In this document: positions 1,289-64,000 of the stretch, piece after piece
Position numbering within the stretch: the first letter of the stretch is position 1
Layout: the number at the start of each line of letters is the position of its first letter
Source of the DNA: Burkholderiales bacterium
GTDB lineage: Bacteria; Pseudomonadota; Gammaproteobacteria; Burkholderiales; SG8-39
Direction: 5' to 3'
DNA length: 64,000 nucleotides
Assembly (NCBI GenBank): GCA_036406675.1
Contig: DASXAO010000138.1
Location: 6,851 to 70,850, forward strand
The notes under the pieces: generated by a model
The model's input: the letters and a program-made list of their open reading frames with translations, nothing else
What the model was told of the DNA's origin: nothing
The model's database searches: none
Program-made: the position numbers and the translations under genes

Positions 1289-2140
1289 ATGATCGAAGGC
1301 GCGAAGTGGAAGAAGTGGCTCTGGTTCTACCTGCCGCTGGGCGCGTTCATCTTCGGCCTGCTGTTCCCGTTCTACTGGATGGCGGTGACCACCATGCGGC
1401 CCGACGGCGAGCTCTACCGGCCGTGGAACCACCCGCTCTACTCGCCGTTCTGGACCGCCCACCCGACCTTCGACCACATCAAGAACCTGGTGCAGGAGAC
1501 GCTGTTCAACCAGTGGATGTGGAACACCATGCTGATCTCGCTCGCGGCGACGCTCATCTCGCTGGTGTGCGGCGTGTTCGCGGGCTACGCGCTGGCGCGG
1601 CTCAAGTTCCGCTACGCCGGGCTGCTCGGCACCGCGATCTTCGTCACCTACCTGGTGCCGCAGACGCTGCTGTTCATCCCGCTCGCCGACATCATCCGCG
1701 AGTACCGCCTCGGCGACACGCCCTGGGCGCTGATCCTCACCTATCCGACCTTCCTCATCCCGTTCTGCACCTGGCTGATGATGGGCTACTTCAAGACCAT
1801 CCCGAAGGAGCTCGAGGAATGCGCGCGCATCGACGGCGCGGCGCGCTGGCAGGCGATGATCTACATCATCTTCCCGATCGCGGTGCCGGGCATCCTCTCC
1901 GCCGGCATCTTCGCCTTCACGCTGTCGTGGAACGAGTTCATCTACGCCCTGGTGTTCCTTTCCTCCCCGGAGCAGAAGACCGTCCCCGTCGGCGTGGTGT
2001 CGGAGCTGATCCGGGGCGACGTGTTCTTCTGGGGGCCGCTGATGGCGGGCGCGCTGATCGGCTCGATCCCGGTGGCGATCGTCTATTCCTTCTTCGTCGA
2101 GTACTACGTCACCGGCATGACCGGCAGCGTCAAAGGCTGA
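1289..2140 (+). CDS. carbohydrate ABC transporter permease (MalG/UgpE-like)
   Basis: 283 aa ORF with an EAA loop (LEECARIDGAARWQAMIYIIFPIAVPG). It lies between the first permease and the ATPase gene. Confidence 0.85.
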   Translation: MIEGAKWKKWLWFYLPLGAFIFGLLFPFYWMAVTTMRPDGELYRPWNHPLYSPFWTAHPTFDHIKNLVQETLFNQWMWNTMLISLAATLISLVCGVFAGYALARLKFRYAGLLGTAIFVTYLVPQTLLFIPLADIIREYRLGDTPWALILTYPTFLIPFCTWLMMGYFKTIPKELEECARIDGAARWQAMIYIIFPIAVPGILSAGIFAFTLSWNEFIYALVFLSSPEQKTVPVGVVSELIRGDVFFWGPLMAGALIGSIPVAIVYSFFVEYYVTGMTGSVKG

Positions 2141-2152
2141 ATGCGGGGTTGA

Positions 2153-3216
<1,064 letters not shown>

Positions 3217-3220
<4 letters not shown>

Positions 3221-4053
3221 GCTTCCGCTATCCGATCGCCGATGCCCACATGCACGTGTGGGATCCGCACGCGCATTACTACCCGTGGCTGTGCGACGAG
3301 CGGCCGATCCCGTTCCGCTACGGCGACTACGGCAAGCTCCGACGCCGCTACCTGGTCGACGACTACCGCGCCGACACCGCCGGCTGGCGGGTGTCGCACG
3401 CGGTCTACATCGAGGCCGAGTGGGATCCGCGCGATCCGCGCGGCGAGATGGATTTCCTGGAAAGAATCAGGAAGGCGAGCTCGTTTCCGACCGTCGCCGT
3501 CGCACAAGCGTGGCTCGACCGGGAAGACTGCGCCGAGGTGCTCGAAGCGCACACGCGGCACGGCTTCGTGCGCGGCGTGCGCCACAAGCCTCGGCCCGGG
3601 ATGATGGACGATGCCCGCTGGCGCGCAGGCTTCGCGCGCCTCGCCCGGCTCGGCCTGCACTTCGAGCTGCAGGCGCCGTTCCCGCAGCTCGGGGAGGCTG
3701 CGCGCCTGGCGCGCGATTTCCCCGATACCACGATCGTGCTGAACCACGCCGGGCTGCCTTCCGCCAGCGGCGCGCGCGAATGGCGCTCGGCGATGGCCGG
3801 GCTCGCCGCCTGCTCCAACGTCGCGGTGAAGATTTCGGGCATGGGGGTCCCGGTGCGGGAATTCGTGCTCGGGGTGCTCGAGCTGTTCGGCGTCGAGAGG
3901 ACGATGTTCGCGAGCAACTACCCGGTGGACAGCCTGCGCGCCAGCTTCACGACGATCTACGCCGGCTTCGAGGAGATCACCCGCGGCATGGCCGAGGCAG
4001 AGCGCCGCGCGCTCTTCTACGACAACGCGCTGCGCATCTACAGGATGAGGTGA
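3217..4053 (+). CDS. amidohydrolase-2 family protein (COG3618-like sugar lactonase candidate)
   Basis: This is the 3' part of the 1111..4053 frame. The sequence IADAHMHVWDP...NHAG...FASNYPVD is typical of metal-dependent amidohydrolase-2 lactonases. The first ATG (3250) lies inside the HxH metal motif, so a non-ATG start upstream (CTG 3217) is suspected. The start is uncertain. Confidence 0.72.
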
Positions 4054-27458: not shown

Positions 27459-28799
27459 TCAAGCCGCGGCGGGGATAACCTCGCGCAGCGTTTGGAACAA
27501 CCGATCGATCTGCGGCTTCTCGACGATGAGGGGCGGGGAGAGCGCGATGATGTCGCCGGTCACCCGGATTAGAACCCCCGACTCGAAAGCTTTCACGAAC
27601 GCCTCGTGGGCGCGCCGGCCGGGCGCCTCGGCCCGGGGCTCGAGCTCGACCGCCGCAACCAGGCCGCAGTTGCGGACGTCGATCACGTGCCGCGTGCCCT
27701 TGAGCGAATGCGCCGCGTCCTCCCAGTACTTCTCGAGCGACTGGGCGCGAGTGAGGAGGCTCTCTTCCGCGTACGTTTCGAGCGTGCCGATGCCCGCAGC
27801 GCAGGCGAGCGGATGGCCCGAATAGGTGTAGCCGTGGAAGAGCTCGATGCTCGACAAGGAAGATTCGGGCCCCTGCATGAAGGCCTCGTACAGCGACTCC
27901 TTGAGGAACACGGCGCCCATCGGCACCGTGCCGTTGGTCAGGCCCTTCGCCGTGGTGAAGAGGTCCGGCATGACGCCGAAGCGCTGCGAAGCGAAGGGAT
28001 GGCCCAGGCGTCCGAACCCGGTGATCACCTCATCGAAAATGAGCAGGATGCCGTGCCGCGTGCAGATCTCCCGCAGGCGCTCGAGATAGCCTTTCGGCGG
28101 CACCAGCACGCCGGCCGATCCGGCCACGGGCTCGACGATCACCGCCGCGATCGTCGAAGGATCATGCAGCACGCAGAGCCGTTCCAGCTCGTCTGCGAAC
28201 TCCGCACCCCTTTCCGGTTGCCCCTTGGAGAACGCATTTCGCTCGAGGTCGTGCGTGTGGCGGATATGGTCTACGCCCGCGACGCCGGGGCCGAACGTCT
28301 TCTTGTTTGCCGGCAGCCCGCCGACCGCCATGCCGCCGAAATTCACGCCGTGATAGCCGCGCTCGCGGCCGATCAGACGGAAGCGCTGGCCTTCGCCGCG
28401 CGCGCGGTGGTACGCGAGCGCGATCTTGAGCGCGGTGTCGACCGATTCCGAGCCGGAGTTGGTGAAAAACACGCGCGAGAAGCCCTCGGGCGCGATGCGC
28501 GCGAGCCTCTCGGCGAATTCGAACACCATCGGGTGGCCCATCTGGAACGTGGGCGCGAAGTCCATCGTCGCGACCTGGCGCTTGACCGCTTCGACGATCT
28601 TCGGCCGGCAATGTCCGGCGTTGACGCACCAGAGCCCCGCCGTGCCGTCGAGCACCTGGCGCCCTTCGGGCGTCCAGTAATACATGCCCTCGGCGCGCGC
28701 AAGCAGCCGCGGCGCCTTCTTGAATTGGCGATTCGCAGTGAACGGCATCCAGAACGCCGACTGCTCGAGGTCCGAACCGAATTCCGCGCGCTTGTTCAT
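27459..28799 (-). CDS. class III (omega) aminotransferase, beta-alanine/pyruvate transaminase-like
   Basis: 446 aa with the PLP-lysine context DLFTTAKGLTNG and an overall aspartate aminotransferase fold type I class III pattern. Confidence 0.88.
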   Translation of the reverse strand: MNKRAEFGSDLEQSAFWMPFTANRQFKKAPRLLARAEGMYYWTPEGRQVLDGTAGLWCVNAGHCRPKIVEAVKRQVATMDFAPTFQMGHPMVFEFAERLARIAPEGFSRVFFTNSGSESVDTALKIALAYHRARGEGQRFRLIGRERGYHGVNFGGMAVGGLPANKKTFGPGVAGVDHIRHTHDLERNAFSKGQPERGAEFADELERLCVLHDPSTIAAVIVEPVAGSAGVLVPPKGYLERLREICTRHGILLIFDEVITGFGRLGHPFASQRFGVMPDLFTTAKGLTNGTVPMGAVFLKESLYEAFMQGPESSLSSIELFHGYTYSGHPLACAAGIGTLETYAEESLLTRAQSLEKYWEDAAHSLKGTRHVIDVRNCGLVAAVELEPRAEAPGRRAHEAFVKAFESGVLIRVTGDIIALSPPLIVEKPQIDRLFQTLREVIPAAA

Positions 28800-28830
28800 G
28801 AGGACACATTACACCGCAGTGCGGTGCACT

Positions 28831-28922
28831 AAAAAGGGGTCAGAGGAATTTTCCTGTAACACACACGCGGCGCGCATACGTGCGCGTGCAAGTGTTACAG
28901 GAAAATTCCTCTGACCCCTTTT
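28831..28922. repeat. family-1 palindromic element, copy 1 (31-bp perfect inverted arms)
   Basis: Left arm 28832-28862 (AAAAGGGGTCAGAGGAATTTTCCTGTAACAC) is the exact reverse complement of right arm 28892-28922. A GC-rich 29-nt spacer with its own CACGCG/CGCGTG pairing separates them. A second copy lies at 52345-52437. Confidence 0.85.
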
Positions 28923-29769
28923 ATCCCTGGTAGGCGACGACGCGCTGCTTCTGCACGCCCAGGTGCTGGATGCTGAGCGTCATGACGTCGCCCGCCTTGA
29001 GAAACACCGGCGTCGGCTTGATGCCCAGGCCCACGCCCGGCGGCGTGCCGGTGGCGATGATGTCGCCGGGCAGCAGCGTCATGTACTGGCTCACGTGCGC
29101 GATGATTTTCGCCACGCCGAAGATCATGGTGCGCGTGTTGCCGGTCTGCATGCGCTGGCCGTTCACCTCGAGCGACATGTCGAGGCTCTGCGGGTCGGGA
29201 ACCTCGTCGGTGGTGACGAGCCAGGGGCCGATCGGGCCGGCGGTGTCGAAGCCCTTGCCCTTGTCCCACTGGCTGGTGGCCATCTGGAACGAGCGCTCCG
29301 AGACGTCGTTGACGATGCAGTAGCCGGCGACGTGGCTGAGCGCCTCGGCCTCGCTCACATACTTCGCGGTGGTGCCGATGACCACGCCGAGCTCCACTTC
29401 CCAGTCGAGCTTGGTCGAGCCCCGGGGCTGGATCACGTCGTCGCTCGGCCCGCTGATGCAGGTGGTCGCCTTCATGAACACGATCGGCTCAGAAGGGATC
29501 GGCATGCCGGCTTCTTTGGCATGGTCGGAATAGTTGAGGCCGATCGCGACAAACTTGCCGATGCCGACGTAGGGCACGCCGAAGCGCGGGGTGGCGTTCA
29601 CGAGCGGCAGCGTTTCCGGCTTGAGGCGCGACAGGGTCTTCAGCTGGCGCGGCGAGATCTCGTTCGGGCCGATGTTGTCGATCACCTTGGAGAGGTCGCG
29701 CAGGCGGCCTTCGCCGTCGATCACGCCCGGCTTCTCGTAGCCAGGCTTGCCATACCGGCACAGCTTCAT
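28921..29769 (-). CDS. fumarylacetoacetate hydrolase (FAH) family protein
   Basis: 282 aa with typical FAH-family sequence (GLNYSDHAKE...VELGVVIG...NDVSERS...GTPPGVG). ATGA overlap with the upstream SDR gene. Confidence 0.88.
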   Translation of the reverse strand: MKLCRYGKPGYEKPGVIDGEGRLRDLSKVIDNIGPNEISPRQLKTLSRLKPETLPLVNATPRFGVPYVGIGKFVAIGLNYSDHAKEAGMPIPSEPIVFMKATTCISGPSDDVIQPRGSTKLDWEVELGVVIGTTAKYVSEAEALSHVAGYCIVNDVSERSFQMATSQWDKGKGFDTAGPIGPWLVTTDEVPDPQSLDMSLEVNGQRMQTGNTRTMIFGVAKIIAHVSQYMTLLPGDIIATGTPPGVGLGIKPTPVFLKAGDVMTLSIQHLGVQKQRVVAYQG

Positions 29770-35068: not shown

Positions 35069-35769
35069 AGCCAAGGGTCTACCTCGACGCCCCGCTCGAG
35101 CAGCCGGGCGAGGTCTCGCTCCACGATGCGCCCGCGCACCATCTCGCGCGCGTGCTGAGGCTGCGCGAAGGCGATGCGCTCACCGTCTTCAACGGCCGCG
35201 GCGGCGAATGGGACGCGCAGTTCATCGGCAAGCGGCGCGTGCGCATCTTGAGCTTCAACGCCATCGAGCGCGAGTCGCCTCTGCAGATCACGCTGGTCCA
35301 GGGCGTCTCTTCCGGCGACCGGATGGATTACACCGTGCAGAAGGCGGTCGAGCTCGGGGTCGCGGCTATTCAACCGTTGATGACGAAAAAGGGCGTGGTG
35401 AAGCTGGAGGGTGCCCGTGCGTCAGCCAGGATCGAGCACTGGAGAAAGATCGCCATAGCGGCATGCGAGCAATGCGGCCGCAATCGCGTTCCCGAAGTGC
35501 GGCCGCTCATCCACTTCGATCAATATCGCCCCGATGGCGGGAAAACGCGGCTGCTGCTGTCCGCCGAAGGCGAGCCCATCCGGAAGCTGAAGACGGAAAG
35601 CGAAGCGACGATTGCCGCCGGGCCGGAAGCGGGTTTCGCGCCCGAAGAGCAGGCCGCGCTCGAGCGCGTCGGGTTCGTGAAAGCAAGCCTGGGGCCGCGC
35701 GTGCTGCGCACCGAGACCGCGGCGCTCGCCGCGCTCGCCGCCCTCAACGCGCTGCAGGGAGATTTCTAG
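35065..35769 (+). CDS. rsmE: 16S rRNA (uracil1498-N3)-methyltransferase
   Basis: 234 aa from MKPRVYLDAPL. It has RsmE-like PUA and SPOUT features (HHLARVLRLREGD, LGPRVLRTETAALAAL). Confidence 0.85.
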   Translation: MKPRVYLDAPLEQPGEVSLHDAPAHHLARVLRLREGDALTVFNGRGGEWDAQFIGKRRVRILSFNAIERESPLQITLVQGVSSGDRMDYTVQKAVELGVAAIQPLMTKKGVVKLEGARASARIEHWRKIAIAACEQCGRNRVPEVRPLIHFDQYRPDGGKTRLLLSAEGEPIRKLKTESEATIAAGPEAGFAPEEQAALERVGFVKASLGPRVLRTETAALAALAALNALQGDF

Positions 35770-37834: not shown

Positions 37835-37840
37835 TTGGCA

Positions 37841-38113
37841 ATGGCGAGGACAGTGAAGTGCGTGAAGCTGGGCCGGGAAGCCGAGGGTCTGGAGCACCCC
37901 CCCTACCCCGGCGCGCTGGGCAAGCGCATCTGGGAGAACGTCTCCAGGGAAGCCTGGCAGCAGTGGCTCAAGCACCAGACCATGCTGGTGAACGAGAACC
38001 GGCTCAACCTCGCCGATCCCAAGGCGCGCAAGTACCTGATGGAGCAGACCGAGCGGCATTTCTTCGGCGAGGGCGCCGAGGTCGCTTCGGGTTACGTGCC
38101 GCCGGAAAAATAG
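37841..38113 (+). CDS. yggX: Fe(2+)-trafficking / oxidative damage protection protein
   Basis: 90 aa. [52 protein letters not shown] aligns closely with E. coli YggX as I remember it. Confidence 0.85.
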
Positions 38114-38131
38114 GGACAGTCCCTATTTTCC
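38104..38131. repeat. family-2 palindrome, copy A (GGAAAAATAGGGACAGTCCCTATTTTCC)
   Basis: 11-bp perfect arms around a central A. The yggX TAG stop (38111-38113) lies inside the left arm. Confidence 0.7.
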
Positions 38132-38148
38132 GTTAGCTATGCGTCGCT

Positions 38149-38176
38149 GGAAAATAGGGACTGTCCCTGTTTTTCC
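38149..38176. repeat. family-2 palindrome, copy B (GGAAAATAGGGACTGTCCCTGTTTTTCC), inverted relative to copy A
   Basis: This imperfect copy (one A-to-G change and an extra T) lies 17 nt from copy A and 8 nt from the phoU stop. It is likely the phoU-side terminator. Confidence 0.65.
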
Positions 38177-38183
38177 TGTTTTT

Positions 38184-38882
38184 CTACTCTAGAAGCTCGC
38201 GCTCGACGTCTTCGATTCTGGTGTGCCGCACATCGCGGCCCTTCACCATGTAGACCACGTACTCGGCCATGTTCTTGGCATGGTCGCCGATGCGCTCGAC
38301 CGCCTTGGCGATGAACAGGATCTCGAGCGAGCGGGTGATGGTGCGCGGGTCTTCCATCATGAAGGTGATGAGCTGGCGCATGATGGCGCGGAACTCGTCG
38401 TCCACCGCCTCGTCCTGCTTCACCACGCGCATCGCCTCGGAGACGTCGAGGCGCGCGAACGCGTCGAGCGACTGGCGCAGCATCGCGGTGGCGCGGTCGG
38501 CGACGTGCGACAGGTCCAGGCGCGGCATGTGCTGGCGGTCCGCGGTGTGGATGAGCTTCGCCATGCGCGCGATCTTCTGCGCCTCGTCGCCGATGCGCTC
38601 GAGATCGGTGATGGTCTTGATCACCGCGACCAGCAGGCGCAGGTCGCCCGCCGCCGGCTGGCGCCGCGCGATGATGTGGCTGCAGGCCTCGTCGAGCTCG
38701 ACCTCGATGGCGTTGACCCGGTGGTCCTCGCCGATCACCTTGTCGATGAGCTCCATGTTGCCGGAGATCAGGCTCTCCATCGCGCGGGTGATCTGCTCCT
38801 CCACCATGCCGCCCATCTGCAGCACGCGTGAGCGGACTCGCTCGAGCTCGGCGTCGAACTGCTTTGACGTGTGTTCAGCCAT
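38184..38882 (-). CDS. phoU: phosphate signalling complex protein PhoU
   Basis: 232 aa with two PhoU repeats (ERIGDEAQKIARMA and ERIGDHAKNMAEYV). Confidence 0.9.
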   Translation of the reverse strand: MAEHTSKQFDAELERVRSRVLQMGGMVEEQITRAMESLISGNMELIDKVIGEDHRVNAIEVELDEACSHIIARRQPAAGDLRLLVAVIKTITDLERIGDEAQKIARMAKLIHTADRQHMPRLDLSHVADRATAMLRQSLDAFARLDVSEAMRVVKQDEAVDDEFRAIMRQLITFMMEDPRTITRSLEILFIAKAVERIGDHAKNMAEYVVYMVKGRDVRHTRIEDVERELLE

Positions 38883-40461: not shown

Positions 40462-41244
40462 ATGTTCTCGATGGCCTCGGGGTACGAGCAATACATGGGG
40501 CGGTGGAGCCGCTTGCTCGCACCCGACTTCGTCACGTTCAGCGGCGTTCGGGATGGTGAGCGCATTCTGGATGTCGGCACGGGCACTGGCGCGCTCGCCA
40601 CGGCGCTGGAAGAAGCGACGCGCACCAGCGAAATCGCCGGCGTCGATCCGTCCGCGGGCTTCATCGAGCACGCGAAGAAGAACGCGGTCTCCGGGCGCGT
40701 GCGCTTTGAAGTCGGAGATGCGCAGGCTTTGCCTTATGGCGATGCGTCGTTCGACCATGCCATGGCCCTGCTCGTGATCAATTTCGTCCCGGACCACGCG
40801 AAGGCGCTTCGCGAGATGCGGCGCGTGACCCGACCAAGCGGCGTCGTCAGCGCCTGTGTGTGGGATTACGGCGCAGGAATGGAAAGCCTTCGCATCTTCT
40901 GGGACGAGGCGGTCGCCCTCGATCCGGCCGCCGCACCGAGGCACGAGCGGAACATGAAGCTGGCACGCGAGGGAGAACTCGGCGCGCTCTGGAAGGGGTC
41001 CGGCCTGGCCAACGTGCGGGAGACGGCTTTGGTGATCGAGCAGGCCTTTTCTTCGTTCGACGACTACTGGGCGCCCTTCCTGAACGGAACCGGTCCCGGG
41101 GGCGCGTACGTGGCGTCGCTACCCGAGGAGAGGCGCCGCCGACTCGAGGCACGGCTGCGCGGCCGTTTGCTCGGCAGCCGCCCGGACGGCAGGTTCGCAC
41201 TGCAGGCGCGCGCTTGGTGCGTGCGCGGCGAACTCACGCCTTAG
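40462..41244 (+). CDS. class I SAM-dependent methyltransferase
   Basis: The ATG at 40462 is preceded by AGGAGA and gives 260 aa. Motif I is [12 protein letters not shown]. Confidence 0.8.
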
Positions 41245-41899
41245 CGCGGATCGTCCTTACTCCCGTGGTTTCTCCGAGCAACAGGAGGTCGGCCGGCCGC
41301 AGTGCGAAAAGCCCGTTGGTCACCAGGCCGGCAAGGTTGTTGAGATCGCGCTCCAGCTCGGGCGGGTTGAGGATCGTCATGCCGTGGCAATCGAGCACGA
41401 TGTTGCCGTTGTCGGTCGTGAAGCCCTGGCGCAGCTCGGGATGACCGCCGAGCCTGACGATCGCCCGGCCGACGTGGCCGCGCGCCATCGGGATCACCTC
41501 GAGCGGCAACGGAAACTTGCCGAGCACCGGCACCAGCTTCGAAGCGTCGCAGATACAGACGAAGCTGTCCGCGACCGCGGCGACGATCTTTTCTCTCGTC
41601 AGCGCGCCGCCGCCGCCCTTGATCATGTGCAGGTGCTCGGTGACCTCGTCGGCGCCGTCGACGTACACCGGCAGCTCGTTCACGCTGTTCAGGTCGAATA
41701 CCCGGATGCCGTGTGATTTCAGCCGCTGCGCGCTCGCCTCCGAGGCGGCGACCGCGCCCTCGATGCGGCCTTTGATGGTGGCGAGCGCATCGATGAAGAA
41801 GTTGACCGTCGAGCCGGACCCTACTCCGACGACCTTGTCTTCCACGACGTATTTCAGCGCCGCATGCGCGACGGCTTTCTTCAGGTCGTTTTGGTTCAC
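41234..41899 (-). CDS. rpiA: ribose-5-phosphate isomerase A
   Basis: 221 aa with a GTG start. Motifs are GVGSGSTV and DGADEV. Its GTGA overlaps the lpdA stop. Confidence 0.9.
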
Positions 41900-43614
41900 T
41901 TCTTTCTTTGCGGCGGGAGGTCGGTGCAGACGCCCTCGAACGCTTCGGCCGCCATGCCGACCGATTCACCGAGCGTCGGATGGGGATGGATCGTCTTGCC
42001 GATGTCGGTGGCGTCGGCGCCCATTTCGACGGCGAGCGCGAGCTCGCTGATGAGATCGCCCGCGCCGGTGCCGACGATGCCGCCGCCGAGGATGCGGTGG
42101 CTGTCGGCGTCGAAAATGAGCTTGGTGAAGCCTTCGTCGCGCGCGTTCGCGATGGCGCGGCCGGACGCGGCCCAGGGGAACTTGGCCACGCCGACCTTGG
42201 TGCCGTTCTTTTTCGCCTCGTCCTCCGTCAGGCCGACCCAGGCGATCTCCGGGTCGGTGAAGGCGACCGACGGGATGACGCGCGCGTCGAAGTGCGATTT
42301 CTGGCCCGCCGCAGCCTCGGCGGCCACGTGCCCCTCGTGCACCGCCTTGTGCGCGAGCATCGGGTTCCTGGTGATGTCGCCGATGGCGTAGATGTGCGCC
42401 ACATTGGTTCGCATTTGACTGTCAGAAGGAACAAAACCCTTATCTGTAACTTCGACGCCGGCCTTCTCCGCGCCGATGCGCTTCCCGTTCGGAACGCGGC
42501 CGACCGAGACCAGGACCATGTCGTAGGTCTTCGCCTCCGCGCCCTCGAAAGAAACCTTGAGGCCGTCCTTCGCCGCCTCGACCTTGGTGGTCTTCGCCTT
42601 CAGCATGATCCGGTCGAAGCGCGGCGCGTTCACCTTCTGCCAGACGGCGACGAGGTCGCGGTCGGCGCCGAGCATGAGCGCGTCCATCATCTCCACCACG
42701 TCGAGGCGCGCGCCGAGGGTCGAGTACACCGTGCCCATCTCGAGCCCTATGATGCCGCCGCCGATCACCAGCAGCTTCTTCGGCACGCCCTTCAGCTCGA
42801 GCGCGCCGGTGGAGTCGACGATGCGCGGATCATCGGGCAGGAAGGGTAGCTTCGCCGCCTGCGAGCCCGCGGCGACGATCGCCGACGCGAAGCGCACCGT
42901 CTTCCTGCCTTCCTTCGTCTCCACGACCATGTGGTGGGGGTCGGAGAAGCTCCCCACGCCGGTGAGCACCGTGACCTTGCGCAGCTTCGCCATCGAGGCA
43001 AGGCCGCCGGTCAGCCTGCCGACCACCTTGTTCTTGAACTCGCGCAGCTTCGCGAGATCGAGCTTGGGCTCGCCGAACGCGACGCCGTGCGAAGCGAGCG
43101 CCTTGGCTGCATCGATGACGGCGGCGGTGTGCAGCAGCGCCTTGGATGGAATGCAGCCGACGTTGAGGCACACGCCGCCGAGCGTCGGGTAGCGCTCGAC
43201 CAGCACGGTCTTGAGCCCGAGGTCGGCGGCGCGGAACGCCGCGGAGTAGCCGCCAGGCCCGGCGCCGAGCACCACCACGTCGCATTCGACGTCGGCGCCG
43301 GTCGAAGGCGCGGGCGCCGCGGGCCTCGGCGCTTCCGGCAGCTTTGGCGGGGTTGGAGCTTCGGCTTTCGCTTCCTGGCCTTCCAGCAGCAGGATCGGCG
43401 AACCCTGCGAGACCTTGTCGCCCACCTTGATGCGGAGCTCCTTCACCACGCCTGCGCCTGGCGACGGAATCTCCATCGTCGCCTTGTCCGACTCGAGGGT
43501 AATGAGCGACTGCTCCTTGGAGACGGCGTCGCCGGGCTTCACCAGCACTTCGATGACTTCGACGTTCTTGAAATCCCCGATGTCGGGGACCCTGACCTCG
43601 GTGCCGGCGGCCAT
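41896..43614 (-). CDS. lpdA: dihydrolipoyl dehydrogenase (E3) with N-terminal lipoyl domain
   Basis: 572 aa. The N-terminal ~78 aa form a lipoyl domain ([11 protein letters not shown]). It has the FAD motif GAGPGGY and the redox disulfide [13 protein letters not shown]. Confidence 0.92.
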
Positions 43615-45252
43615 CTAGAGGATGAGCTTGCGGATGTCGGACAGCACCGAAACGAGGAAGCCCGAGAAGCGCGCGGCAGTGGCGCCGTCGATCACGCGGT
43701 GATCGTAGGAAAGCGAAAGCGGAAGCATCAGCCGGGCCTTGAAGAGATCTTCGCCCTTCTCGCCCTTCCCCGAGAACACCGGCTTCAAGACGGAACGGGA
43801 AACCCCGAGGATTGCGACCTCCGGCGCGTTGATGATCGGCGTGAACGCGGTGCCGCTGATGCCGCCAAGGCTCGAGATCGAGAACGTGCCGCCCTGCATG
43901 TCGCCCGGCTTGAGCTTGCCGTCGCGCGCGAGCTTGCTGATCTCGGAGAGCTCCTGCGCGAGGTCGAACACGCCCTTGCGGTCGGCGTCGCGCACCACCG
44001 GCACCACCAGCCCCCCGGGCGTGTCGACCGCCACGCCCACGTGGTAGTACTTCTTGATGACGACGTTCTCGCCCGACTTGTCGAGCGAGGAGTTGAACAC
44101 CGGGAACTGCCGCAGCGCGGTGACGCAGGCCTTGATCATGAAGGCGAGCATCGTCAGCTTGAAGCCCTTCTTCTCGGTCTCGGCGGTCTGCGCCTTGCGG
44201 AAGGCCTCGAGATCGGTGATGTCGGCTTCGTCGAACTGCGTGACGTGCGGAATCGAGATCCAGTTGCGGTGCAGGTACGGGCCCGACAGCTTCTGGATGC
44301 GCGAGAGCGGCTTCGTCTCCACCGGCCCGAACTTGGCGAAGTCCACGTCCGGCCATGCCGGCAGGTTGAAAGGCAGCGCGCCGCCCGCTTTTGCACTGAC
44401 CTGAGTCGGTGCTTTCGAGAGGGCGCCCTTCACGAACGCCTGCACATCGGTGTGCACGATGCGGCCCTTGGGTCCGCTGCCCTGCACCTGATGCAGGTCG
44501 ACCCCGAGCTCGCGAGCGAACTTGCGCACCGAAGGGCTGGCGTGCGGCTTCGCGCCGACTTCCTCCTGCGGCTCTCGCGGCACCGGCCGCGGCGCGGGCG
44601 CAGCCGCCGGCGCACTCGCCACGGGCCTGGAAGGCGCCTGGGCAGGCGCGGCCGCCGCAGAAGGCGACTTCGCGGGCGCGGCCGGCGCCGCGCCTGCAGA
44701 AGCGGAGAGAACGAGGATGGCTGCGCCCTTCGACACCTTGTCGCCCACCTTGATCTTCAGCTCGCGCACCACGCCGGCGGTGGGCGACGGAATCTCCATC
44801 GTCGCCTTGTCGGATTCGAGGGTGATGAGCGACTGCTCCTTCGCCACCGCATCGCCCGGCTTCACCAGCACCTCGATGACCTCGACCTCCTTGAAGTCGC
44901 CGATATCGGGCACCGGCACCGTGGTGGAGCTGCCGTCGCCCGTGGGCCTCGCTTCCTGCCTGGGCTCCTTCTTCGGCTCGGGCTTTTGCTCGGCCTTCGG
45001 CTGCGGCCTGGAAGACTCGTCCTTCGCCTCGAGCTCGAGGATGGGGGAGCCCTTCGACACCTTGTCGCCCATCTTGATCTTGATCTCGCGCACCACGCCG
45101 GCGGAGGGCGAGGGGATCTCCATCGTCGCCTTGTCGGACTCGAGCGTGATGAGCGACTGCTCCTTGGTCACGGCGTCCCCGGGCTTGACCAGCACCTCGA
45201 TGACGGCGACGTCCTTGAAATCTCCGATGTCCGGGACCACGACCTGGGTCAT
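43615..45252 (-). CDS. aceF: pyruvate dehydrogenase E2, dihydrolipoyllysine-residue acetyltransferase (two lipoyl domains)
   Basis: 545 aa with two [11 protein letters not shown] lipoyl domains, a peripheral subunit-binding domain and the catalytic motif DHRVIDG. Its TAG stop directly abuts the lpdA ATG. Confidence 0.92.
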   Translation of the reverse strand: MTQVVVPDIGDFKDVAVIEVLVKPGDAVTKEQSLITLESDKATMEIPSPSAGVVREIKIKMGDKVSKGSPILELEAKDESSRPQPKAEQKPEPKKEPRQEARPTGDGSSTTVPVPDIGDFKEVEVIEVLVKPGDAVAKEQSLITLESDKATMEIPSPTAGVVRELKIKVGDKVSKGAAILVLSASAGAAPAAPAKSPSAAAAPAQAPSRPVASAPAAAPAPRPVPREPQEEVGAKPHASPSVRKFARELGVDLHQVQGSGPKGRIVHTDVQAFVKGALSKAPTQVSAKAGGALPFNLPAWPDVDFAKFGPVETKPLSRIQKLSGPYLHRNWISIPHVTQFDEADITDLEAFRKAQTAETEKKGFKLTMLAFMIKACVTALRQFPVFNSSLDKSGENVVIKKYYHVGVAVDTPGGLVVPVVRDADRKGVFDLAQELSEISKLARDGKLKPGDMQGGTFSISSLGGISGTAFTPIINAPEVAILGVSRSVLKPVFSGKGEKGEDLFKARLMLPLSLSYDHRVIDGATAARFSGFLVSVLSDIRKLIL

Positions 45253-51579: not shown

Positions 51580-52347
51580 TTGCGCGTCGCGACCTGGAAC
51601 GTCAATTCGCTGAAGGTGCGCCTGCCGCACCTCGTCGACTGGCTCGCACGGGAAAAGCCGGACGTCGCCTGCCTGCAGGAGACGAAGATCGAGGACGCGA
51701 ACTTCCCCGTCGCCGAGGTGCGCGCCGCCGGCTACGAAGCGGTGTACTGCGGCCAGAAGGCCTACAACGGCGTGGCGATCCTCGCGCGAACCCCGCCGGC
51801 CGCCGTGCAGCACGGCATCCCCGATTTCGCCGACGACCCAAAGCGCGTGATCGCCGCGACCGTCGGCGAAGTGCGGATCGTGTGCCTGTACGCGCCCAAC
51901 GGGCAGGCGCCGGGATCGGACAAGTACGAGTACAAGCTGCGCTGGTACGACGCTCTCGCCACCTGGCTGCAAGGGGAAGCGGAACGGCATCCAAGCCTGG
52001 CCGTTCTAGGCGATCTGAACGTCGCACCGGAAGACCGCGACGTGCACGACCCGAAGCGCTGGGCAGGACAGATCCACGTTTCGGACCCCGAGCGCGCGGC
52101 GATGCGCCGCGTGGTCGACGAAGTCGGGCTGGCGGACGCTTTCCGGCTTTTCCCGCAGCCGCCGGGCGAATTCTCGTGGTGGGACTACCGCCTCGCCGCG
52201 TTCCAGCGCAACTGGGGCCTGCGCATCGATCACATCCTGCTTTCGCCGGAGCTCGCGAAGCGCTGCCGTGCCTGCTTCGTCGACAAGTCACCCCGAAAGC
52301 TCGAGCGGCCGTCGGATCACGCTCCGGTCATCGCGGAGCTGCAGTAA
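51580..52347 (+). CDS. xth: exodeoxyribonuclease III
   Basis: 255 aa with an apparent TTG start. [17 protein letters not shown]...CLQETK...SDHAPV is typical of the ExoIII/Xth family. Confidence 0.88.
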
Positions 52348-52437
52348 AAAGGGGTCAGAGGAATTTTTCTGTAACACTTTCCGCGCCGCATGCGCGCGCG
52401 CCGGGTGTTACAGAAAAATTCCTCTGACCCCTTTTTA
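52345..52437. repeat. family-1 palindromic element, copy 2 (33-bp perfect inverted arms)
   Basis: Left arm 52345-52377 (TAAAAAGGGGTCAGAGGAATTTTTCTGTAACAC) is the exact reverse complement of right arm 52405-52437. The spacer is 27 nt and GC-rich and contains CGCATGCG. The outermost triplets are the TAA stops of xth (+) and aceB (-). Confidence 0.88.
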
Positions 52438-54036
52438 GTCGATCAACTGATACGCCGGCAAGGTGAGGAACTCAACGTAGTGGTCGTCGACGGTGATGCG
52501 CTCGAAGAGCTGGGCGGCTTCGTCGTACCTGCCTTCGCTCATTGCGGCCTTCACCTTGGCGAGCTCCTCCTTTAGAAGGGCGCGGAAAAGCTCGACCGTG
52601 ACCTTCCTGCCGTCGTCGAGCACGCCCTTGGGCGAGCGGATCCACTGCCAGATCTGAGAGCGCGAGATCTCGGCGGTGGCGGCGTCCTCCATCAGGTTGA
52701 ACACCGGCACGCAGCCGTTGCCCACGAGCCAGGCGCCGAGATACTGGATCCCGACCGAGATGTTGTTGCGCAGCCCCGCCTCGGTGATCGGCTTGTCGGG
52801 CTGGAACGCGAGCAGATCCCGCGCCGAGACGCTCACGTCCGGCCGCTGCCGCGTGTACTGGTTGGGCTGCGGCATGTGCTTGTCGAACACTTCCTTGGCG
52901 ATCGGCACGAGCGCGGGATGCGCGACCCAGGTGCCGTCGCAGCCGTCGGTCACCTCGCGCAGCTTGTCCTGGCGCACCTTGTCGAGCGCGGCCTCGTTCG
53001 CCTTCGGGTCGTTCTTGATCGGGATCTGCGCGGCCATGCCGCCCATCGCCGGCGCGCCGCGCCGGTGGCAGGTCTTCACGAGGAGCAGGGCGTAGGCGCG
53101 CATGAAGGGCGCCGTCATGGTCACCTGGGCGCGGTCAGCGAGGCAGAAATCGCGGTCGGCGCGGAATTTCTTGATGCACGAGAAGATGTAGTCCCAGCGG
53201 CCGATGTTGAGGCCCGAGGAATGCTCGCGCAGCTCATAGAGGAACTCGTCCATCTCGAACGCGGCGACCACGGTCTCGATCAGCGCGGTGGCGCGGATCG
53301 TCCCGACGGGGATCCCGAGCTCCTGCTGCGCAAGCACGAAAATCTCGTTCCACAGGCGCGCCTCGAGGTGCGACTCCATCTTCGGCAGATAGAAGTAAGG
53401 GCCCGAGCCGCGCGCGAGCAGCTCTTTCGCGTTGTGGAAAAAGTAGAGCGCGAAGTCGAAGATGCCGCCGGACACGGGCTGGCCGTCGACCGTGACGTGC
53501 TTTTCATCGAGGTGCCAGCCGCGCGGCCGCGGGATGAGAACCGCGGTCTTCTCTTTCAGGTGATAAACCCTCTGGGTACTGTCAGCTGCGGTGCTTTCGA
53601 AGCTGATCGTGCGCCGCACGGCGTCGCGCAGGTTGATCTGCCCGTCCACCATGTTGTGCCAGGTCGGGCAGTTGGCGTCCTCGAAGTCCGCCATGAACGT
53701 CGAGGCGCCGCTGTTCAGGGCATTGATCACCATCTTTCGGTCGGTCGGCCCGGTGATCTCGACGCGCCGGTCCAGAAGATCCTTCGGCTGCGCAGCAACC
53801 TGCCATTCGGAATCGCGGATGTGTTTCGTTTCCACGAAAAAGTCCGGCTTGACGCCTGTGTCGAACATCGCTTGCCGCTCGGCGCGACGCGCGAGCAACT
53901 CCTGGCGGCGGGATTCGAAGCGCCGGTGGAGCTTGGCTACGAAGGCGAGCGCTTCGGGCGTGAGGATCTGCGCGAACTCGGGAGTGATGCGTCCGGAGAT
54001 CGAAACGTCTTTGGGCAGCGGACTCGACATGTGCAT
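52435..54036 (-). CDS. aceB: malate synthase A
   Basis: 533 aa. Sequence such as [21 protein letters not shown]...FMADFEDA is typical of malate synthase A. An alternative ATG lies at 54030. Confidence 0.9.
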
Positions 54037-63329: not shown

Positions 63330-63380
63330 CGGACGGTGGTCTCCTCTCTGGGTGGCGATTCTAACCGCGCTCCCCGAGCC

Positions 63381-63386
63381 TATAAT
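63381..63386 (+). promoter_or_regulatory. consensus -10 hexamer TATAAT, 9 nt upstream of the rhodanese gene ATG
   Basis: GAGCCTATAATTTTGGTTCGATG was read directly. There is no Shine-Dalgarno sequence in between. Confidence 0.35.
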
Positions 63387-63395
63387 TTTGGTTCG

Positions 63396-63833
63396 ATGGA
63401 CGAGCTGAAGAAGGCGGCGACCGAGCGGGGCGTTAAGCTTGGCTTAAGTTATGCAGGCGCCCTGCTGCCGGCGGAAGCGCACGCGCTCATGCAGCGCGGC
63501 GGCAAGCTCGTGGACGTGCGGACCAAGCCGGAGCTGCTCTACGTCGGCAAGATCCCGGGCGCCATCGGCATCGAGTGGCAAAGCTACCCCGGCAGCCGGC
63601 CCAACCCGGAGTTCCTGGGCGAGCTCGCGGCCACGGTGCGCAAGGACGAGCCGGTAATGTTCATCTGCCGCTCGGGAGCGCGCTCCCACGCCGCCGCGGA
63701 GACCGCCGCCCACGCCGGCTGGACCGAGTGCTACAACGTGCTCGAGGGCTTCGAGGGCGACAAGGACACCCAGCAGCACCGCAACACGGTCGGCGGCTGG
63801 CGCAAGGCCGGCCTGCCGTGGATCCAAAGCTGA
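63396..63833 (+). CDS. rhodanese-like domain protein
   Basis: 145 aa from MDELKK with the active-site loop CRSGARS. The GTG at 63336 was rejected because it lies 6 nt from the divergent dctQ start and adds a non-conserved-looking extension. Confidence 0.8.
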   Translation: MDELKKAATERGVKLGLSYAGALLPAEAHALMQRGGKLVDVRTKPELLYVGKIPGAIGIEWQSYPGSRPNPEFLGELAATVRKDEPVMFICRSGARSHAAAETAAHAGWTECYNVLEGFEGDKDTQQHRNTVGGWRKAGLPWIQS

Positions 63834-63863
63834 GAAAAATAGGGACTGTCCCTATTTTTCTCA
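63831..63863. repeat. family-2 palindrome, copy C (33-nt perfect palindrome TGAGAAAAATAGGGAC-T-GTCCCTATTTTTCTCA)
   Basis: 16-nt arms around a central T. The outer triplets are the TGA stops of the rhodanese gene (+) and of uppP (-). Confidence 0.8.
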
Positions 63864-64000
63864 TTCCTTCCAGTCCACCCAGCCCAGGTAGGCGGTAAGC
63901 AGCACCACCAACCCGAACGCGATGCGATACCACGCGAACGGCTTGAAATCGTGCGTCGCGACGTAGCGGATCAGCCAGCGGATCACGACGAAGGCGCAGA
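63861..64000 (-). CDS. uppP: undecaprenyl-diphosphate phosphatase, C-terminal fragment (5' end outside window)
   Basis: This frame is not in the ORF track because no start lies in the window. My hand translation of the minus strand gives ...[45 protein letters not shown]-stop. It resembles UppP/BacA C-termini as I remember them. Confidence 0.55.

Follow-up and report, generated by a model that had tools for sequence, protein, structure and literature searches.

Repetitive extragenic palindromic (REP) elements form a class of sequences spread by a domesticated IS200-like tyrosine transposase, the REP-associated tyrosine transposase (RAYT), which acts on single-stranded hairpin DNA. REPs are often located near coding regions or overlap them, their termini often supply the TAG stop of the flanking open reading frames (ORFs), and they prefer the spacers of tandem and convergent genes (Di Nocera, De Gregorio and Rocco, BMC Genomics 2013, PMC3733652). 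The same study described a motif, GGGGWSAS, common to the inverted repeats that flank RAYT-like (TIRYT) genes (PMC3733652). For E. coli, the passages of PMC12306157 that cite earlier work describe REPs at most 15 nt from a stop as stalling terminating ribosomes and as able to lower translation. Here we analyse a 64,000-nt stretch of a Burkholderiales bacterium (assembly GCA_036406675.1, contig DASXAO010000138.1, positions 6,851 to 70,850), hereafter the window, in which two families of palindromes contain the stop codons of six genes.

We consider it fairly likely that both families are non-coding palindromes of a mobile type, which have spread to the 3' gene boundaries of a compact genome of about 66% GC, that the stops came to lie inside them through tiny spacers, stop-bearing arms and selection, and that the protein C-termini are native. 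Gene identities and gene ends in the window were checked with NCBIfam (and, for the rhodanese gene, also with Pfam); numbers such as L006 or L140 denote the loci or contigs from other genomes and metagenomes with which the window was compared.

Two palindrome families and the stop codons they contain

The clearest case is the second copy of family 1, a 93-nt element (52345-52437) whose two arms (52345-52377 and 52405-52437) enclose a hairpin centre that is GC-rich and variable (52378-52404). It reads TAA followed by AAAGGGGTCAGAGGAATTTTTCTGTAACAC at its left end and GTGTTACAGAAAAATTCCTCTGACCCCTTT followed by TTA at its right end, the right half being the reverse complement of the left. The arms pair perfectly over 33 nt, or over 42 nt with 90% complementarity, and the predicted folding energy is -70.2/-68.7 kcal/mol (z about -13). 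The outer TAA is the stop of xth (exodeoxyribonuclease III, 51580-52347, plus strand; TIGR00195 matched over positions 1-254 of 254), and the outer TTA is the stop of aceB (malate synthase A, 52435-54036, minus strand; TIGR01344 matched to position 510 of 511). The first copy of the family is 94 nt long (28830-28923), with 31-nt arms at 28832-28862 and 28892-28922 that are 100% complementary. Its right end (28921-28923) is the stop of a minus-strand FAH-family hydrolase gene (2,4-didehydro-3-deoxy-L-rhamnonate hydrolase-like, 28921-29769), while the TAA at its left end (28830-28832) is not a gene stop and faces the ATG (28799) of a minus-strand omega-aminotransferase gene (AptA-like, 27459-28799). 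A further 15-nt palindrome, CACCGCAGTGCGGTG, lies at 28812-28826, between this copy and the aminotransferase start codon. The family-1 arms correspond to AAAAAGGGGTCAGAGG; the elements fold with about -70 kcal/mol on either strand, and their centres vary from copy to copy, always remaining GC-rich hairpins.

The window contains three copies of the family-2 hairpin, GAAAAATAGGGACWGTCCCTATTTTTC, a palindrome of 27-33 nt whose centre base is asymmetric (38104-38131, 38149-38176 and 63831-63863). The first two copies, with centre A and centre T, respectively, are inverted relative to each other and separated by a 17-nt spacer, forming a REPIN-like doublet (38104-38176; a REPIN being the doubled, inverted form of a REP) that folds into a single 28-bp hairpin of -53 kcal/mol. 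The TAG stop (38111-38113) of yggX (oxidative damage protection protein, 37835-38113, plus strand) lies inside the stem of the first hairpin, and the stop of phoU (38184-38882, minus strand; stop 38184-38186) lies 7 nt past the second. The single copy at 63831-63863 is a 33-nt palindrome, TGAGAAAAATAGGGACTGTCCCTATTTTTCTCA, in which the outermost triplet TGA is the stop of a rhodanese-domain gene (63336-63833, plus strand) and TCA is the stop of uppP (63861-64000, minus strand), a gene whose 3' end only falls in the window and whose product matches the UppP model to the last position (272/272). All hairpins of the window are stable on both strands (-20 to -70 kcal/mol) and flanked by A/U runs, and the arm patterns of both families had no match in 100 shuffles. 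The proteins of the flanking genes reach the last 0-2 positions of their NCBIfam or Pfam models.

Inspection of the sequence bore out what the preliminary description had reported of these elements: they are present at the positions given there, the stops of six genes (xth, aceB, the FAH-family hydrolase gene, yggX, the rhodanese gene and uppP) lie inside palindromes, and the yggX end codons GAA AAA TAG belong to element sequence. Its statement that no DNA other than the elements separates the convergent genes is right for xth/aceB and rhodanese/uppP and too broad for yggX/phoU, where the stops are 70 nt apart and both the spacer between the hairpins and the 7-nt tail intervene. Elsewhere in the window, a 230-nt direct repeat present three times (43373-45249, 77-81% identity) corresponds to lipoyl domains of pyruvate dehydrogenase E2 (43615-45252) and of a lipoyl-bearing E3 (41896-43614), and is ordinary domain repetition.

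The wider distribution of family 2 is informative about its nature. Its 21-nt core was found in at least 120 metagenome contigs with GC contents of 0.39-0.72, and many of these sites hold two inverted hairpins, with centre A and then T, like the doublet of the window. Contig L140 carries 20 hairpins in 12 kb, arranged as arrays, together with a 224-aa gene that matches Pfam PF01797 (Y1_Tnp) with 39 bits, above the cut-off, and the NCBIfam model "REP-associated tyrosine transposase" with E=1e-15, below the cut-off of that model. A GGGACWGTCCC hairpin directly adjoins this transposase gene on both sides, and the gene's own stop is the internal TAG of the hairpin. RAYT homologues flanked on both sides by the same hairpin also occur in L177, L178, L088, L063 and L124; the contigs with such homologues include a Sphingomonadales metagenome-assembled genome (MAG) and Qipengyuania sp. 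GCA_019745075.1, and one close homologue is named REP-associated tyrosine transposase at NCBI. Since RAYT genes are flanked by the same hairpin, and since doublets and arrays occur, family 2 is, by these comparisons, a REP element with its RAYT, and a REPIN when doubled.

The tag of the family-2 hairpin is ATAG (with the variants TTAG, AGAG and ACAG), symmetric and base-paired within the stem. The TGA/TCA type of flank, TGAGAAAAATAGGGAC, was found again in unrelated contigs, so that both the TGA...TCA pair and the internal TAG are part of the element sequence itself in recurrent subfamilies. The core (GGGACWGTCCC with AAATAG-type flanks) is present in Burkholderiales, Sphingomonadales, Qipengyuania and contigs of about 0.5 GC, with RAYTs merely 37-41% identical, which looks like broad conservation of the REP core across taxa. 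Searches of other kinds returned little: Rfam at its gathering threshold reported no family in the window, a BLAST search of the 38-nt REP against plasmids gave no match, a scan of viral contigs gave three contigs only, and a full-text literature search for the core strings retrieved only unrelated matches and no description of these REP or palindrome families.

Family 1 has a much narrower distribution. A scan of one genome per species with the family-1 arm gave true copies in the MAG of Burkholderiales bacterium SMAG_U13179 only, and degenerate relatives in two other MAGs; the remaining matches, which were the majority, were due to chance. Within the arm, GGGGTCAG agrees with the GGGGWSAS motif. 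The family is best called a lineage-restricted long palindromic repeat, either similar to miniature inverted-repeat transposable elements (MITEs) or of the "TIR repeat" type (TIR, terminal inverted repeat). One family-1 copy, in L018 (5790-5840), has a tandem duplication of its right end, with two occurrences of CTCTGACCC(C)TTTTGTTTTCACG.

Orthologous junctions and protein C-termini

The comparison of orthologous junctions shows differences in the presence of the elements, and turnover. The xth/aceB element is absent from L167, where xth and aceB are 90% and 96% identical to those of the window, and the yggX elements are absent from L173-L175. The FAH site is occupied by a long form in the window and by a short form in L007, the corresponding locus of SMAG_U13179, which is syntenic with the window over 22.9-30.5 kb (88-95% identity). 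This short form is a plain hairpin that has the outer 22-nt arms only, in contrast to the full-length element of the window, and the TTA at its far end serves as stop for a DUF350 gene, which is missing from the window. At the yggX/phoU junction of L176 (2774-2842) there is a family-1-like palindrome with arms AAAAAGGGGTCAGAACAAATTTCCG, whose outer TAA and TTA are the stops of both genes, whereas the window has the family-2 doublet at this place; the presence of different families in the two genomes therefore implies that the same junction was colonised independently.

In L007, about 1.9 kb of additional DNA (1658-3550, compared with 28800-28830 in the window) lies between the FAH gene and the aminotransferase gene, and the family-1 element forms the boundary of this insertion or deletion. 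The additional segment contains the DUF350 gene, a glutathionylspermidine-synthase-like gene and a small ORF. It was considered as a possible full-length parent transposon of family 1 and rejected, given that it encodes the DUF350 and glutathionylspermidine-synthase-like proteins and no transposase.

The proteins compared end where their relatives end. Among 120 homologues of Xth (78-90% identity), the C-termini ending in HAPVIAELQ, as in the window, and in AELR are the commonest, with the same length as in the window. The empty site of L167 reads GAG-TAG-ttgcgatgctttttt-CTA-GTCGATCAG, with a 15-nt spacer and no element, and aceB ends there at the same codon as in the window. In YggX, the family pattern GYVPP-x-K occurs at the same length at the C-terminus (120 homologues), a pattern that the PPEK end of the window protein fits, and the empty yggX sites of L173-L175 end in AAG-TAG or AAG-TGA. 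The FAH orthologue of L007 ends in AYQG, like that of the window, with a TAG stop just outside the A-run and palindrome. For thirteen further proteins, taken from the census described below and ending at the internal TAG of a REP, the match to the family model comes within a few residues of its end. As far as this can be tested, and judged by sequence comparison, the elements overlie or replace native stops and create no new C-termini.

According to the preliminary description, identical C-termini and stops in orthologues without the elements would make the coincidence of elements and stops a trivial one. Identical C-termini without the window's element at the junction are largely what is found (in four of the six window genes: xth, aceB, the FAH gene and yggX), and to that extent the coincidence is indeed largely trivial. 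What remains non-trivial is that the elements lie much nearer to stops than random placement within the spacer would predict, and that some junctions have zero spacer on either side.

The empty site of L167 (4786-4806) is the only one available for xth/aceB, and the end of its spacer, CTTTTTT-CTA, resembles the CCCCTTTTT-A end of the element; the site could be the footprint of an element loss rather than a place that was never occupied. Loci L168-L172 and L179-L182 were considered as empty xth/aceB sites and proved unusable, as they have an extra gene between xth and aceB. In L168-L171 and L180-L181 a luciferase-like monooxygenase gene lies there (at about 4749-5747 in L168) and overlaps the 3' end of xth by 20 nt; in L172 and L179 there is instead a 127-aa ORF, and the junction is variable. 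A look-up of the exact Xth protein led to a 1.6-kb contig that breaks inside the element.

Placement of the elements and how it may arise

In order to describe where the hairpins lie relative to genes, we took a census of 99 family-2 sites in high-GC contigs, with genes called by a crude method based on the GC content at third codon positions (GC3). The hairpins lie at 34 convergent, 48 tandem and 1 divergent junctions, and only one of them falls inside a called gene. Of the 126 gene ends that face a hairpin, 34 (27%) stop at its internal TAG, 9 stop at TAA-ATAGGGAC, and for a further 44 the distance between the last base of the stop and the hairpin centre is 10-18 nt, which with the 9 makes 53 at 9-18 nt. 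In L048, L085, L134 and L147 the two convergent genes end in one shared hairpin, with 9 nt between the stops. At tandem junctions the hairpin is nearer to the upstream stop than to the downstream start (34 vs 7, p=2.5e-5), and single hairpins have a preferred orientation relative to the upstream gene (33 vs 14, p=0.008). For family 1, the stop lies within or abuts a 5-nt A/T run at 11 of the 15 gene ends that face a copy.

These numbers have to be read against the spacers that such genomes offer. The element-free convergent gaps of the window measure 3, 6, -26, -11, 26 and 0 nt, and over 79 element-free convergent junctions from all high-GC loci the median gap is 15 nt, 47% being of 10 nt or less. 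Much of the stop adjacency follows from this, because convergent spacers are already tiny and limit the insertions that can be tolerated. At two places in the window the convergent genes overlap according to the GC3-based calls, by 26 nt (35744-35769) and by 11 nt (41234-41244), and canonical terminators seem to be absent at these tight or overlapping junctions.

We propose the following explanation for the whole pattern. Family 2 would spread by RAYT-mediated single-strand transposition. With downstream spacers of about 0-15 nt, especially between convergent genes, any insertion that is tolerated would have to abut stops. The A-rich and T-rich outer arms carry stops on both strands (TAA...TTA at the ends of family 1; in family 2, TAG...CTA in the stem and, in one subfamily, TGA...TCA), and where an element inserts at a native stop or right next to it, a stop at the same codon position may be regenerated. 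Purifying selection would eliminate any insertion that disrupts coding sequence, ribosome-binding site or promoter, and leave those that retain a stop and do not touch the start region downstream. Once transcribed, the hairpins, with their flanking A-run and U-run, probably act as two-way terminators or as protectors of 3' ends.

Several observations weigh against this explanation. There is no RAYT within the 64-kb window, so that the RAYT link of the window copies is suggested by identical hairpins in other genomes, and the canonical unpaired end tag GTAG (or CGTC) was not found in the family-2 hairpins. No transposase was seen beside any family-1 copy in the loci compared, and the flanking TA is absent from the copies in L006, L008 and L024, which makes a target-site duplication inconsistent. 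A scan with a consensus terminator flagged one hairpin only (38149-38175), with no excess over shuffles. The census relied on a crude gene caller, and choosing its loci with an exact 21-mer set the AAATAG context in advance; in it, genes terminated at the TAG and genes reading through stand at 34:1, where a frame-blind insertion into coding ends predicts 1:2, and strong selection or targeting is therefore needed. Additionally, there is no spacer on either side of the element at xth/aceB in the window and at yggX/phoU in L176, compared with 15 nt at the empty site of L167, and simple insertion into a spacer is therefore insufficient.

The zero spacer at some junctions and the in-frame use of TAG far above read-through are the reasons why a targeting of integration to the vicinity of stops keeps some room, although we regard such targeting as unlikely. 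In its general form, integration would be directed by a short AT-rich target, which in a GC-rich genome is the stop and the adjacent A/T bases, the element being placed on the stop and regenerating it. The lack of spacer on both sides at the two junctions just mentioned would follow, as would the independent arrival of two families at the same junction. Measured from the hairpin centre, the stops accumulate at fixed distances (5, 9 and 11-12 nt), and nothing but A residues separates them from TAGGGAC; the native yggX end AAG-TAG shares 5 of 6 bases with the AAATAG of the REP; and the orientation of single REPs relative to the upstream gene also fits. Enzymes of the IS200/IS605 type insert 3' of a specific 4-5-nt target, without duplication. 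Nevertheless, the offsets spread continuously over a wide range (5-36 nt and more), all three stop codons are used, about 30% of the gene ends are more than 18 nt away, long REP arrays lie far from any stop (L140), and small native spacers together with purifying selection predict most of the pattern, which leaves the idea improbable. Slightly more doubtful still is its strict version, in which a RAYT-type single-strand transposase integrates specifically at an AT-rich, stop-like target, replaces the native stop and leaves no spacer; if it were true, a mobile element would in such genomes be remodelling gene ends in a systematic way and providing a common two-way terminator as well.

For family 1 alone, the elements may be conventional MITEs of a TA-duplicating insertion sequence (IS630/Tc1-like), the TA of TAA or TAG stops being the target that is duplicated at both ends. 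The 31-33-bp terminal inverted repeats and the length of 93 bp agree with this, TA is rare outside stop codons in a genome of 66% GC, and TA is found at both ends in 6-7 of 14 family-1 copies (both window copies and those of L176, L030, L109 and L017). Yet a TA target-site duplication was rejected as a general rule for the family, both on account of the three related-MAG copies named above, which lack it, and because, reasoning from L167, a TA duplication cannot restore both convergent stops at xth/aceB from the empty site: aceB would lose its stop. The centres differ strongly among copies and still remain palindromic, no parent insertion sequence turned up, and the short form of L007 is a plain hairpin. 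We therefore hold a conventional MITE origin to be a doubtful account of family 1.

Besides insertion aimed at stop codons and strong selection for minimal two-way terminators, the preliminary description had offered the capture of element ends as new stops, meaning that insertions truncated or extended the flanking proteins and gave them element-encoded stops and C-termini. Element sequence does contain the terminal codons of yggX, and also those of many census genes (AAA TAG), and a few census proteins (hmgA, proC) extend 5-9 residues past the family model. However, the xth, aceB, FAH, yggX and uppP products end where orthologues or models end, and most of the 13 census proteins tested end within about 3 residues of the model end, so that capture in this sense is very improbable. 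Of the earlier interpretation, the part that stands is that repeated palindromes of a mobile type physically hold the stop triplets; the part that finds no support is capture as a change of C-termini, the orthologues of xth, aceB, FAH and yggX ending at the same residue.

Least credible of all is the idea that the hairpins are non-mobile bidirectional intrinsic terminators, evolved locally and alike through convergent selection, for although on either strand they show an A-run, a stem based on G/C and a U-run, fold very stably and are nearly never found between divergent genes, identical 21-33-nt sequences recur at unrelated loci and across bacterial classes, they stand on both sides of RAYT genes, form arrays and inverted doublets, are present or absent at orthologous sites and have stems of 15-40 bp that far exceed the needs of a terminator; a terminator role alongside mobility is possible, while terminators as the sole explanation are contradicted by the RAYT association.

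Comparison with described systems

The relevance of these elements lies mainly in annotation and in the understanding of compact GC-rich genomes. Many genes have their stop and their final one or two codons within mobile hairpins, with the consequence that gene callers and repeat maskers can clip or extend genes, and the hairpins probably set the transcript 3' ends for both genes of a convergent pair. The share of gene ends that use the internal TAG puts a number on what had been a qualitative report, and a REP core shared with RAYTs in Alpha- and Betaproteobacteria is a useful system for studying the target choice of these enzymes.

Family 2 is closest to the REP/REPIN-RAYT systems of E. coli, Pseudomonas and Stenotrophomonas, with which it shares short imperfect palindromes, found singly, in inverted doublets and in arrays, a location in tandem and convergent spacers, and a RAYT flanked on both sides by the same hairpin. 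As in the GTAG REPs of PMC3733652, its TAG serves as the stop of flanking ORFs. It differs from these systems in its tag, which is ATAG (TTAG, AGAG), on both sides and paired, rather than an unpaired GTAG at one end; in a hairpin that is AT-rich in a GC-rich genome; and in a core that is common to Alpha- and Betaproteobacteria despite RAYTs that are only 37-41% identical. With the stop-proximal REPs of E. coli, as far as the cited passages describe them, it has in common that the hairpin starts at most 15 nt from the stop or on it; here, however, the hairpin often includes the stop.

Family 1 resembles the TIR repeats associated with TIRYTs, carrying the GGGGTCAG motif and consisting of moderately abundant, lineage-restricted long inverted repeats, although no tyrosine transposase stands beside the family-1 copies compared and the likeness is that of one 8-nt motif. 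It also resembles MITEs such as the Correia elements of Neisseria and the enterobacterial ERIC sequences, which are about 100 bp long, have long terminal inverted repeats folding as one hairpin and are co-transcribed with neighbouring genes, and the TA at both ends of several copies adds to this; it departs from them in lacking a consistent target-site duplication, in its hypervariable palindromic centre and in having no known parent insertion sequence. Both families share with bidirectional intrinsic terminators the order of A-run, stem and U-run on both strands, right after or overlapping both stops, and differ from them in being repeated families with 15-40-bp stems that the consensus scan did not single out. 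Taken together with these systems, the finding is an example, with numbers, of REP behaviour that has already been described, and not a new kind of biology.

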